DNA of 64,000 nucleotides from Escherichia phage HMD-P10: the sequence record PV469800.1; one strand, written 5' to 3'. Shown here in pieces: positions 23,007 through 25,716 of the stretch. The notes under the pieces are model-generated. The model was given only the letters and a program-made list of their open reading frames with translations. It did no database searches and was not told where the DNA came from. The position numbers and the translations under genes are program-made. How positions within the stretch are numbered: the stretch's first letter is position 1; the number at the start of each line of letters is the position of its first letter.

Positions 23007-23888
23007 ATGAAAACATCTATCCGTGTTATAATTCATTCACCGACAAAAGGGTCTCATGAAGAAGAGTTTAACATCATCCAGTTCCCTTCTGGTGAGATTG
23101 GTGGACACTTTTCACAAGAGCTTGTTGATTTTACTGCTTATGCAGCATCGTCTATCAACAATGTAATTATGATTGTAAAAGGCTACGACAAGGACACATT
23201 GTTTGCTGTGGCACTTGCTAAAGAAGCAATTGATGATTTAATTCCTCATGATTATGCCTTAAAGACTGTCATCTTTTACTACTTACCAAATGCACGATAT
23301 GACCGTCACATGTTTAAAGGTGATGCAGCAGCTTTGAAGGTCTTTGCTAAACAGGTTAATGCAATGGGGTTTGGTGCGGTCTGTGCAGTTGACCCTCACA
23401 GTTATGTGCCAGATAACCTGTTTAACTGTTTCCAAAGTATTCCTCAAAATGAAATTGCAGTCCACTATGCAAATGACCCACTGGTTGATTACTTAGTAGC
23501 CCCAGATGCAGGTGCTTCTAAGAAGATTGCAGAAACTGCTAAAGAGGTGGATAAGCCATATATCACAATGTCTAAGGTGCGTAACCTTAAGACTGGTGAA
23601 ATTACTGGTATGCGAATCCTTGATGATGTTGATTTGACCGATAAAACTGTTATGATTCTCGACGATATCTGTGATGGTGGTCGAACCTTCATAGAAGCAG
23701 CTAAACATCTTCGTGAAGCAGGTGCAAAACGTGTGGAACTCTATGTAACACATGGCATCTTCTCTAAAGGTGTTGAAAACCTTCTTGACAATGGTATTGA
23801 CCACATCTACACTACAAACTCTTTAGGGGAAGCTAAAGACCGTGGTTTAACACATTATGGTCAAGTTACTGTAGCAAACCTTGATTAA
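23007..23888 (+). CDS. ribose-phosphate pyrophosphokinase-like protein (Prs family; possible ADP-ribose pyrophosphokinase)
   Basis: PRPP-binding loop MILDDICDGGRTF; ATG 23007 with GAGAG RBS; adjacent to NAMPT-like gene. Confidence 0.75.
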   Translation: MKTSIRVIIHSPTKGSHEEEFNIIQFPSGEIGGHFSQELVDFTAYAASSINNVIMIVKGYDKDTLFAVALAKEAIDDLIPHDYALKTVIFYYLPNARYDRHMFKGDAAALKVFAKQVNAMGFGAVCAVDPHSYVPDNLFNCFQSIPQNEIAVHYANDPLVDYLVAPDAGASKKIAETAKEVDKPYITMSKVRNLKTGEITGMRILDDVDLTDKTVMILDDICDGGRTFIEAAKHLREAGAKRVELYVTHGIFSKGVENLLDNGIDHIYTTNSLGEAKDRGLTHYGQVTVANLD

Positions 23889-23897
23889 AACTTTATA

Positions 23898-23919
23898 GGG
23901 GGCTTTTAAGCCCCATTTT
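23898..23919 (+). terminator. hairpin terminator or attenuator between the Prs-like and NAMPT-like genes
   Basis: GGGGGCT-TTTA-AGCCCC + ATTTT. Confidence 0.45.
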
Positions 23920-23934
23920 GAGAGAGATTAAAAG

Positions 23935-25716
23935 ATGACTAAATCACTTTATGCAGTACCAGCAGGTTTAAACGCAGATGCTTACAAATCTGGTCACATT
24001 TACCAGTATCCTAGCGCAACAGAATACTTGATGTTCAACCTGACACCACGTAGTGATAAATGGTTTAACAGTCCTTTAGCAATTGACGGTGTGGTGGCTT
24101 TTGGTATTCAACGTTTTGTTAAAGACTACTTAATAGACCACTGGAACGCCACCTTCTTCGAACGTGACAAAGAAGAAGCAATTGACGAAATCTTAGAAGT
24201 CATGAACGGTGTTCTGGGTAAAGATGCTATTGGCCGTGAACATTGGGAAGCACTTCACGACTTAGGTTATCTACCAGTTGAAGTATACGCTGTAGAAGAA
24301 GGCACAGTTGTTCCTATGCGTGTACCAATGATTGTCTTCCAGAACACTGTTTCAGGTTTCCATTGGGTAGCGGGGTATCTGGAAGATGCTTTCTCTGCTG
24401 AGATTTGGAAGGCTTGTACCATTGCAACTATTGCATTGCACTACAAACGTATCTGTAAGAAGTGGTCTGACCTTACTTGTGATAACGACTTACATTTGCC
24501 TTATCAGTGCCATGACTTTGCTATGCGTGGTATGTCCGGCTTTACCGATGACGCATTTAACGCTGTAGGCCACTTAACCAGCTTTAAAGGAACTGATAGC
24601 TTCCCTGCTGTATATACAGCTAAACGCATCTATGGACAGTCCTACCCAATCTCTGATATTGGTAGCTCTGTACCAGCCACTGAGCACTCTGTAATGTGTG
24701 CAAACATTGCTTGGGAAGGTGGTAATGAGTTGATTGAAGAAGAAAGACGCTTTAAAGGTGAGTTACAGACCTTCCGTCGTTTCTTAACAGAAACTTACCC
24801 AACTGGTATTGCAAGTGTTGTTTCAGACACTTATAACTTTTGGAGAACTGTGTCAGAAATCTTACCAGCACTTCGTAAAGAGATTATGGAACGTGATGGC
24901 AAACTGGTCATTCGTCCTGACTCTGGCGACCCTGTACATATTGTCACAGGTTATAAAGCAATCCACTTAGAGTGTGCTAAAAAGGCTTATTACGAACACC
25001 TAAGCAAGCTGGAAGCCAGCGACACAATGCTGAATGCTGTTCTGAACATGAAGCTTGAAAACATCAACTATGGTATTGCTGGATGGCTACTGTCAGAAGG
25101 CTACGAGATGGTTGTTGACAGAGAAGACTTTGAAGTTGCTGATACAGTGCTGTTGAAAAATGCTTATATGGTTGGCTCTGCAAATGTTGTAACACGTCCT
25201 GTAGCAGAGATTGATGGGGCTATTAAGACCCTGTATAACATCTTTGGAGGGACTATCAACTCTAAAGGTTTTAAGGTACTGGATGAGCACATCGGCCTTA
25301 TTTATGGTGACTCTATCACGTTGGAACGTGCAAACGAAATCCTTAAGCGTTTGTATGAAATGGGTTTTGCAAGCTCTAACGTAGTGTTTGGTGTAGGTTC
25401 TTACACTTACCAGTACATGACTCGTGACACCTTTGCATTTGCTGTCAAAGCAACTCTTGCAAGCATTGGTGGTAAAGAGATTATGCTTGCAAAAGACCCT
25501 AAAACAGATAGTGGTGTTAAGAAGTCTGCTTTTGGTGGTGTAGCACCTATGTGGGATGGTGATAAGCTGAAAGCTGTAGATGGCTATGGATTCCAGAGCT
25601 TTGCAGATGTGTTAGAGCATCCAGCTTGTGCTTTACGTTTAGTCTTTAGTGAATCTGAGCAGTTTGGCTACACAACTCTTGGTGATATTCGAAATAATAT
25701 TGACAAGCAACTTTAA
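23935..25716 (+). CDS. nicotinamide phosphoribosyltransferase-like protein (NAMPT/NadV family)
   Basis: 593 aa; overall resemblance to NAMPT family; GAGAGAG RBS. Confidence 0.75.
   Translation: MTKSLYAVPAGLNADAYKSGHIYQYPSATEYLMFNLTPRSDKWFNSPLAIDGVVAFGIQRFVKDYLIDHWNATFFERDKEEAIDEILEVMNGVLGKDAIGREHWEALHDLGYLPVEVYAVEEGTVVPMRVPMIVFQNTVSGFHWVAGYLEDAFSAEIWKACTIATIALHYKRICKKWSDLTCDNDLHLPYQCHDFAMRGMSGFTDDAFNAVGHLTSFKGTDSFPAVYTAKRIYGQSYPISDIGSSVPATEHSVMCANIAWEGGNELIEEERRFKGELQTFRRFLTETYPTGIASVVSDTYNFWRTVSEILPALRKEIMERDGKLVIRPDSGDPVHIVTGYKAIHLECAKKAYYEHLSKLEASDTMLNAVLNMKLENINYGIAGWLLSEGYEMVVDREDFEVADTVLLKNAYMVGSANVVTRPVAEIDGAIKTLYNIFGGTINSKGFKVLDEHIGLIYGDSITLERANEILKRLYEMGFASSNVVFGVGSYTYQYMTRDTFAFAVKATLASIGGKEIMLAKDPKTDSGVKKSAFGGVAPMWDGDKLKAVDGYGFQSFADVLEHPACALRLVFSESEQFGYTTLGDIRNNIDKQL

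Follow-up and report, generated by a model that had tools for sequence, protein, structure and literature searches.

Positions 23007-25716 of the window, the 64,000-nucleotide stretch of Escherichia phage HMD-P10 analysed here, carry an adps-namat gene pair that, with a probability we put at about 0.93 from sequence comparison, represents the NARP1 operon of a Felix O1-like myophage. The operon is already known and belongs to the founding lineage of the published NARP1 system. Its two genes correspond by position to genes 79 and 80 of the colinear genome of Bas63 (Escherichia phage JohannRWettstein, accession MZ501086 in the BASEL supplementary tables) and are their orthologues. NARP1 was first found, and validated by genetics, in that phage (bioRxiv 10.1101/2024.02.11.579819, Osterman et al.), whose NARP1 genes were also the subject of an independent report (10.1101/2024.10.10.617714). 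The window comes from a Felixounavirus genome and aligns with Bas63 over its full length at ~87-98% nucleotide identity. A total of 256 phage records match the region, mainly Felixounavirus and relatives, with a coverage of 80% or more in 217. What is new here is limited to minor points: an Adps N-terminal allele, an HNH insertion in relatives, and a Macro gene 7.8 kb downstream.

Both genes are on the plus strand in the ORF listing of the window. The first, adps (23007..23888, starting with ATG), is predicted to encode a 293-aa ADP-ribose pyrophosphokinase (ADPR-PP synthetase) of the Prs family, and the second, namat (23935..25716), a 593-aa nicotinamide ADP-ribose transferase of the NAMPT family; the spacer between the adps stop and the namat start is 46 bp. 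The earlier note had described a Prs-like gene with a PRPP-binding loop directly upstream of a NAMPT-like gene, and both ORFs were confirmed at these positions, with the PRPP-type loop MILDDICDGGRTF at residues 216-228 of Adps. The longest possible adps ORF reaches a TTG at 22989, overlapping the stop codon of the upstream gene (22994-22996). The ATG at 23007 is preceded 7 nt upstream by a GAGAG Shine-Dalgarno sequence (22995-22999) and agrees with the Bas63 annotation, and the namat ribosome-binding site is GAGAGAG at 23920-23926. In comparison with three relatives, with the divergent Adps N-terminus excluded, dN/dS for adps and namat was 0.03-0.05, indicating strong purifying selection and therefore real, functional genes.

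A terminator-like hairpin at 22169..22191 on the plus strand (AAGGGGACTGTAAAGGTCCCCTT followed by a T-run; 9-bp stem with 5 GC pairs, MFE -17.5 kcal/mol, T-rich tail) probably sets the 5' limit of the transcription unit holding the operon. Upstream of the pair, plus-strand ORF171 (22210..22725) shares 96% aa identity with Bas63_0077, making it the Bas63 gp77 orthologue, matches PHROG 3500 and has a weak HNH-like match; judging from the flanking terminators, it is putatively co-transcribed with adps. The Bas63 gp77 protein was reported to counter the Ec67 retron (10.1101/2024.10.10.617714). ORF92 (22718..22996, plus strand) is the orthologue of Bas63 gp78 but only 70% identical to Bas63_0078; it matches PHROG 4726 and no Pfam family, and its 3' half, with 68-74% nucleotide identity to Bas63 at 22750-22929, falls within the divergent allele block described below.

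Between adps and namat, a plus-strand hairpin at 23899..23914 (GGGGCT-TTTA-AGCCCC then ATTTTG; MFE -12.7 kcal/mol), kept in Bas63 with a different loop, may act as a weak attenuator or RNA-stability element. Some relatives (FelixO1, pinkbiff) carry an HNH gene in the adps-namat spacer, and in these no such hairpin was found beside the HNH gene. The 3' end of the operon appears to be marked by an intrinsic terminator-like hairpin at 25728..25751 on the plus strand (AAGAGGCTCCTACGGGAGCCTTTT; 10-bp stem with 5 GC pairs, MFE -16.6 kcal/mol), 12 nt past the namat stop codon. Bas63 has this terminator and the hairpin between the genes as well, and agrees with the window in genus, gene order, strand and both protein lengths.

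[quoted passage not shown] Bas63 without genes 79-80 loses SIR2-HerA resistance and does not make ADPR-PP (bioRxiv 10.1101/2024.02.11.579819), and single g79 or g80 deletions reduce plating on Sir2-HerA by 1e4-1e6-fold, a defect that can be complemented (10.1101/2024.10.10.617714). Both enzyme reactions have been shown in vitro only for the SPbetaL1 homologues, of which Adps converts ADPR to ADPR-PP and Namat prefers ADPR-PP over PRPP, making NAD+ directly (PMC12774641). Bas63 Adps could not be purified, and the ADPR-kinase activity of Felixounavirus Adps therefore rests on in-vivo metabolite data. From the Bas63 orthologues, characterised in two independent studies, the window operon is predicted to counter NAD+-depleting defences.

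The window Adps is 100% identical to that of SLAM_phiST56, 77% identical to Bas63_0079 and 29-37% identical to other operon-linked Adps proteins (~29% to SPbetaL1 Adps), compared with 22% for E. coli Prs. Its Pfam matches (PF14572 / PF00156) are Pribosyltran (1.8e-11) and Pribosyl_synth (2.8e-9), domains that it shares, together with the PRTase-type fold, with cellular Prs. K190 (MSKVRN) aligns with the catalytic K162 (GHKQRN) of SPbetaL1 Adps, of which a K162A mutant has been described (bioRxiv 10.1101/2024.02.11.579819), and the DPHS, PDAGA and DDxxxGGxT motifs are retained along with the N-terminal FPxGE. Among the NCBIfam Prs models, only the broad TIGR01251 was passed, and barely (118.4 bits versus a cut-off of 113); on all the others the protein scored 42-103 bits against cut-offs of 296-536, missing every Prs equivalog cut-off by at least 190 bits. 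SPbetaL1 Adps reached 106 bits, which puts it in the same range as the window Adps (~110 bits for the two), versus 423-532 bits for E. coli Prs. Taken together, pairwise identities and NCBIfam scores place the protein in the phage Adps clade, apart from cellular Prs. The directly adjoining namat gene follows the adjacency rule for this clade, in 97% of which a Namat gene is directly adjacent.

The first ~180 residues of the window Adps differ from the Bas63 allele, whereas the C-terminal 113 residues are ~97% identical. At the nucleotide level, identity to Bas63 is ~60% over 23019-23288 versus 90-98% in the flanks. The window-type allele is common to pinkbiff, SLAM_phiST56 and ~150 other records, and the genus has two deep Adps alleles. 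Recombination breakpoints fall within adps, the change from one allele to the other coming near codon 150 in FelixO1 and near codon 180 in Bas63. For codons 1-94 compared with Bas63, pN was 0.27 with saturated synonymous sites and pN/pS of ~0.3, which indicates that the allele making up the N-terminal third diverged long ago and arrived by recombination, as opposed to recent adaptive change; positive selection on the Adps N-terminus was rejected on the same grounds.

This allelic split could also mean that the operon derives from NARP1 but that its Adps has altered properties and is not simply equivalent to the Bas63 enzyme, for example in its range of ADPR-derivative substrates, its oligomeric state or regulation, or its escape from an Adps-targeting host factor. 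The depth of the divergence, the intragenic breakpoints and the HNH homing endonuclease often inserted beside adps, which could drive such exchanges, are in line with this reading. However, FPxGE, YxPxARxDR, DPHS, PDxGA, the catalytic Lys and DDxxxGGxT are intact in both alleles, the substitution pattern is that of an old allele kept under purifying selection, and mosaicism of this kind is commonplace in phages, so we regard altered function as highly unlikely. No assay of the window-type allele was found in the NARP1 literature examined; from the sequence, we infer that it has the same activity as Bas63 Adps.

The NARP1 assignment is carried further by Namat, which is 98% identical to Bas63_0080, a protein of equal length for which an AlphaFold3 model has been published, and ~45% identical to SPbetaL1 Namat. 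In Pfam, it matched NAPRTase at 8.6e-35 and NAMPT_N at 2.9e-5 (24.7 bits, just below the 25-bit gathering score). The nearest PDB structures are those of SPbetaL1 Namat (9W5W/9W5X, E ~1e-127), much closer than Xcc Nampt (7e-52) or mammalian NAMPT (~1e-40), which have the same type II PRTase fold. The SPbetaL1 catalytic-core residues, which include an Asp/Tyr pair from the partner subunit and Phe/Arg/Asp in the nicotinamide pocket, are matched by D15, Y17, F195, R198, D221, A248, H251, R327 and D329, of which H251 is catalytic and R327/D329 are the equivalents of Arg306/Asp308. Every ligand-contact residue of SPbetaL1 Namat is identical or conservatively replaced in the window, and is the same residue as in Bas63.

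The published selectivity clamp of Namat consists of two elements that were both found in the window protein, where they are the same as in Bas63 Namat. For the SCH motif, the consensus is GSX-Phi-X-Phi-X-Phi-TRD with aromatics at positions 3 and 7 (PMC12774641), and the window sequence 488-GSYTYQYMTRD-498 fits it, with aromatics at both positions as in SPbetaL1. The controls at this site read GMGGALLQKVDRD in Xcc Nampt and GVGAQTYQRNTRD in PDB 9ke8, and the Xcc and human enzymes are without the adenine clamp. In the SCL loop, the adenine-stacking residue is either Arg at position 3 or Lys/Tyr at position 3 with a stacker at position 4, Bas63 Namat being the Lys-type example (PMC12774641). The window loop TPRSDKWF, identical to that of Bas63, has K42 followed by W43, a pair predicted to provide this stacking function, whereas SPbetaL1 has R40.

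SPbetaL1 NARP1 (PDB 9W5W/9W5X; PMC12774641) thus shares with the window the two-gene architecture, the catalytic core and clamp positions of Namat and the catalytic Lys of Adps, but at low overall identity and with gene ends that abut in place of the spacer. It also differs in Namat, where an insertion of ~85 aa in the window protein (~residues 344-427), located after the RPDSGDP strand, is absent from SPbetaL1 and FADO.

Pfam scans for CTP_transf_like, NUDIX and RyR gave no match in 8 ORFs flanking the operon or in 41 further window ORFs without obvious identity (mostly of at least 110 aa, with four shorter; 51 window ORFs were scanned in all). The Bas63 record has no NMNAT or Nudix gene annotated genome-wide, and the earlier note's statement that no NMN adenylyltransferase is nearby held for these ORFs. 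A RyR-domain (RyDEP) accessory gene was likewise discarded, there being no PF02026 match among the scanned window ORFs. The NARP2 arrangement, a phage Nmnat/Nudix beside Nampt, was not found in the same set. NARP2, as in Vibrio phage KVP40 with its NadV Nampt and NatV Nmnat/Nudix, resembles the window in having a NAMPT-family enzyme and in restoring NAD+ during infection, but it requires an NMN adenylyltransferase and uses PRPP, whereas the window Namat has the ADPR-PP clamp. The NadV/NatV genes intended as NARP2 controls were not in the KVP40 stretch at 195-245 kb, and Pfam scans and PDB controls were used in their place.

In a classical salvage pathway, a true PRPP synthetase and a NadV-type NAMPT would make NMN, to be converted to NAD+ by host NadR or PncC/NadD, or by an unrecognised phage NMNAT as in NARP2. 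Family names suit this scheme, since Pfam, PHROG and NCBIfam all return Prs and NAMPT/NAPRTase and Namat passes the NF006629 equivalog cut-off (465 versus 405 bits), and SPbetaL1 Namat can still turn PRPP into NMN in vitro (PMC12774641). We nevertheless consider it extremely improbable: Bas63, with its nearly identical Namat and orthologous Adps, is rescued independently of host pncC/nadR and overcomes SIR2-HerA even in a pncC nadR double-deletion host, ADPR-PP accumulates in vivo only when the Bas63 operon and the defence system are present together (bioRxiv 10.1101/2024.02.11.579819), SPbetaL1 Adps gives no product in an ordinary Prs assay, and the window pair combines failed Prs equivalog cut-offs with a Namat-specific adenine clamp and no NMNAT or Nudix domain among the scanned ORFs. 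Given the PRPP activity of the SPbetaL1 enzyme, the window pair may still have a minor salvage role.

The NARP1-type reading put forward by the earlier note is thus borne out by orthology and synteny with Bas63 genes 79-80, the selectivity clamp and the low Prs-model scores. Its caution that sequence alone could not tell such a pair from ordinary Prs plus NadV is outdated, because the clamp motif, the clear orthology, the low Prs scores and the failure to find an NMNAT separate the two.

In the NARP1-AP variant (Vibrio phage Gary; bioRxiv 10.64898/2026.01.28.702374), a Macro-domain ADPR-1''-P phosphatase, Adpp, lies between Adps and Namat, and the published neighbourhood rule looks for Adpp within plus-or-minus two genes of the NARP1 genes. 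The window shares the core Adps and Namat and encodes a Macro-domain protein too, but has no Macro gene in or beside the operon: the Pfam scan gave no Macro match in the flanking ORFs, and the only Macro gene found, at 33546-34331, is ~15 genes downstream. Its product is 28% identical (E 1e-14) to gp177 of Chazly21, which belongs to Gary's genus, and 30% identical (E 2e-21) to PAK_P1 gp146, two Macros encoded within or next to NARP1 operons. Its similarity to T4 Tk.4/AdfM (36%), with which it has the GAGIG motif in common, is slightly higher than that to the operon-linked GCGLAG-type Macros, and it has a unique C-terminal extension of ~100 aa. NCBIfam DarG matched all four Macros weakly and did not discriminate between them.

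This evidence leans towards an AdfM/Tk.4-like anti-DarT2 role. The closer likeness to Tk.4/AdfM and the GAGIG motif set back the candidate role of an unlinked Adpp, that is, an ADPR-1''-phosphate phosphatase acting in trans that would make the Felixounavirus NAD/ADPR counter-defence larger than the operon, and we regard this as unlikely. If it were true, the Macro protein would let the phage NARP1 also defeat aRES-type defence, its ~100-aa C-terminal domain would be a new accessory, and the gene would be one that the two-genes-either-side rule misses.

The finding itself brings no new biology, and its practical value is in annotation. In public records the pair is labelled "ribose-phosphate pyrophosphokinase" and "nicotinamide/nicotinate phosphoribosyltransferase". 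The same Prs and NAMPT-type names would come from the curated NCBIfam models; the genes should be named adps and namat. The operon should not protect against aRES, since the product of that system is ADPR-1''-P. For phage therapy and host-range prediction, its presence suggests resistance to NAD-depleting defences of the SIR2, TIR, DSR and SEFIR types.

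Two same-strand open reading frames are present at 23007-25716, where the earlier note had described adjacent Prs-like and NAMPT-like genes: adps (23007-23888, + strand, 293 aa; Pfam domains Pribosyltran and Pribosyl_synth), which does contain the reported PRPP-type loop, MILDDICDGGRTF, and namat (23935-25716, + strand, 593 aa; Pfam domains NAPRTase and NAMPT_N). Translation of adps likely begins at the ATG at 23007, preferred because of its GAGAG ribosome-binding site and its position right after the upstream stop; the alternative given by the ORF finder (TTG at 22989) runs into the upstream gene. 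The 46-bp spacer (23889-23934) holds the namat ribosome-binding site and a short GC hairpin, GGGGCT-TTTA-AGCCCC followed by ATTTTG, conserved in phage Bas63 (Escherichia phage JohannRWettstein, MZ501086).

The region matched 256 phage records by megablast, mainly Felixounavirus and relatives and most at 90-98% identity, and the full window is colinear with Bas63 (window 1-58122 with Bas63 28482-87100, window 58123-63999 with Bas63 1-5877). NARP1, the rebuilding of NAD+ from ADP-ribose (ADPR) and nicotinamide via ADPR-PP, was discovered in Bas63, whose genes 79 and 80 are the founding Adps and Namat (bioRxiv 10.1101/2024.02.11.579819). In the Bas63 record these are labelled "ribose-phosphate pyrophosphokinase" (52746-53627) and "nicotinamide phosphoribosyltransferase" (53673-55454), and they equal the window genes in length and position. 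Window Namat is identical to Bas63_0080 at 582 of 593 residues (98%) and window Adps to Bas63_0079 at 227 of 293 (77%), while the Adps of Salmonella phage SLAM_phiST56 is 100% identical to that of the window.

The pair could in principle be read as classical salvage by Prs plus NadV. Both proteins were compared with those of Bacillus phage SPbetaL1, which are biochemically and structurally characterised. The selectivity clamp of SPbetaL1 Namat has two parts, an SCH motif of the form GSX-Phi-X-Phi-X-Phi-TRD whose positions 3 and 7 are aromatic, and the SCL loop, which supplies a stacking residue (PMC12774641, a 2026 structural paper). Window Namat has 488-GSYTYQYMTRD-498 as its SCH and K42-W43, of the Bas63 type, as its SCL, and all ligand-contact residues of SPbetaL1 Namat are identical or conservative in it; at the SCH position, the controls Xcc Nampt and PDB entry 9ke8 read GMGGALLQKVDRD and GVGAQTYQRNTRD. 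Its top PDB matches were SPbetaL1 Namat (9W5W/9W5X, E about 1e-127), versus E 7e-52 for Xcc Nampt and about 1e-40 for mammalian NAMPTs. Window Adps retains the motifs common to distant Adps proteins, with K190 in the place of the catalytic SPbetaL1 residue K162. On the broad TIGR01251 Prs model it reached 118 bits and on the other curated Prs models 42-103 bits (cut-offs 296-536), the same range as SPbetaL1 Adps (106 bits), compared with 423-532 for E. coli Prs. A NARP2-type arrangement (Nampt with a phage NMNAT/Nudix) is excluded, since none of 51 window ORFs scanned with Pfam matched an NMNAT, Nudix or RyR domain, in line with the NMN adenylyltransferase reported as missing nearby, and the Bas63 record annotates no such domain anywhere. 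The NARP1-type reading of the earlier note is thus borne out by orthology to Bas63 genes 79-80, the Namat clamp and the Prs-model scores.

Deletion of Bas63 genes 79-80 leads to sensitivity to SIR2-HerA and deeper NAD+ depletion, rescue by the operon holds in hosts lacking both pncC and nadR, and ADPR-PP (m/z 720.010) was seen only with the operon and the defence system together (bioRxiv 10.1101/2024.02.11.579819). In an independent transposon and deletion study, removal of g79 or g80 lowered plating on Sir2-HerA 1e4-1e6-fold, which was complemented, with weaker effects for the Ec86 retron and hhe systems (bioRxiv 10.1101/2024.10.10.617714). SPbetaL1 Adps makes ADPR-PP from ADPR and ATP and gives no product in an ordinary Prs activity assay; SPbetaL1 Namat makes NAD+ from ADPR-PP and nicotinamide, preferring ADPR-PP over PRPP. 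Based on the Bas63 and SPbetaL1 work, we assign the window genes the two-step NARP1 pathway, in which window Adps would convert ADPR and ATP to ADPR-PP and window Namat would then convert ADPR-PP and nicotinamide to NAD+. By analogy, the window Adps allele is presumed to share the enzymology of published Adps.

Together with ORF171 (22210-22725, + strand) and ORF92, adps and namat lie between two strong terminator-like hairpins (22169-22191 and 25728-25751), and the four genes are probably transcribed together. ORF171 shares 96% identity with Bas63 gp77, which is reported to counter the Ec67 retron (PhageMaP preprint, bioRxiv 10.1101/2024.10.10.617714); gp77 is named GIY-YIG there, whereas a PHROG scan of ORF171 gave only a weak HNH-like match. 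Because ORF171 shares this terminator-bounded unit with adps and namat, the region has the look of a compact group of anti-defence genes. Downstream, the rIIA-like and rIIB-like genes (26642-29008 and 29088-30194, both + strand) are positional orthologues of Bas63 gp84 and gp85, which are reported to counter the qatABCD defence system (same preprint).

Both operon genes are under strong purifying selection (dN/dS 0.03-0.05) outside a divergent Adps N-terminus. Relative to Bas63, nucleotide identity drops to about 60% at 23019-23288 and 68-74% at 22750-22929, against flanks of 90-98%; the divergent block (22750-23470) spans the 3' half of ORF92 together with the initial 94-180 codons of adps. 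Codons 1-94 of Adps have saturated synonymous sites (pS 0.84) and a pN of 0.27, which indicates an ancient allele acquired through recombination rather than recent adaptive evolution. FelixO1 Adps has a Bas63-type N-terminus and is of window type from near codon 150, pinkbiff Adps is of window type from end to end, and the breakpoints inside adps differ among FelixO1, Bas63 and pinkbiff. The window-type allele occurs at >=90% identity in about 150 records; another 94 or so, comprising Bas63-type alleles and other diverged relatives, match at 60-80%. In place of the hairpin of the window and Bas63, the adps-namat spacer of FelixO1 (L010:2116-2607), pinkbiff (L011:1891-2382) and others is filled by a gene for a 163-aa HNH homing endonuclease, and the adps mosaicism could plausibly have arisen through co-conversion associated with homing.

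In Felixounavirus Namat, the RPDSGDP strand is followed by an insertion of about 85 aa (residues about 344-427, window 24964-25215), without a Pfam match; it is absent from SPbetaL1 and FADO Namat and is shorter, with varying length, in PAK_P1 and Chazly21.

Some NARP1 operons carry an inserted gene for RyDEP, a RyR-domain glycosidase (2026 preprint), or for Adpp, a Macro-domain ADPR-1''-P phosphatase that joins NARP1 to make up NARP1-AP, a system active against aRES (bioRxiv 10.64898/2026.01.28.702374). Pfam scans of the flanking ORFs found no Adpp-type Macro or RyR gene within or beside the window operon. A gene 7.8 kb downstream (33546-34331, + strand) encodes a 261-aa Macro-domain protein (Pfam Macro 7.5e-7, above cut-off) that shares 96% identity with Bas63_0095 'putative phosphatase'. 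It is possible but unlikely that this protein is an Adpp acting in trans. Its Macro domain is homologous to operon-linked Macros, at 28% identity (E 1e-14) to that of Vibrio phage Chazly21, whose gene separates adps from namat, and 30% (E 2e-21) to that of PAK_P1, encoded two genes after namat; over residues 1-156, identity to these two is 29-34%. Chazly21 is a Thalassavirus like Gary, in which Adpp was characterised (bioRxiv 10.64898/2026.01.28.702374). T4 Tk.4, an anti-DarTG2 protein lately given the name AdfM, is slightly closer (36% over residues 1-156) and shares with it the motif GAGIG, as opposed to GCGLAG in operon-linked Macros. The rest of the protein, residues 160-261, is an extension that is unique to Felixounavirus-like phages and matches no family.

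Elsewhere in the window, nrdD is uninterrupted (17850-19994, + strand, 714 aa), unlike that of Bas63 (L002:46630-49516), which an insert of some 740 bp encoding a homing endonuclease divides in two; Bas63 47828-48568 has no window counterpart, and the Bas63_0072 segment is also missing from the window. At 34800-40800, at least 10 small ORFs each follow a repeated intergenic cassette with a near-identical terminal leader, CCTTAAACTAGGAGATTCAAAAATG, several also with an upstream element of the TTGA... type and a GC hairpin (repeat families D1-D5); these look like reiterated modules that combine promoter, terminator and translation-initiation signals of early genes. Clustered tRNA genes, 26 in all (52877-57900, + strand; among them Met, Lys, Gln, Arg and Ser twice each and Leu three times), directly follow a Ro60-like gp130 orthologue (51296-52711) with DUF2828/DUF7788-type matches. 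In a set of 21 scanned window ORFs, one matched a PRA-PH/MazG-like pyrophosphohydrolase domain (8.8e-6) and a second a GIY-YIG endonuclease domain of the SegE type (9.4e-28).

The adps-namat pair is the already published NARP1, in the phage genus of its discovery, and the worth of the finding lies in a corrected annotation and minor side observations.
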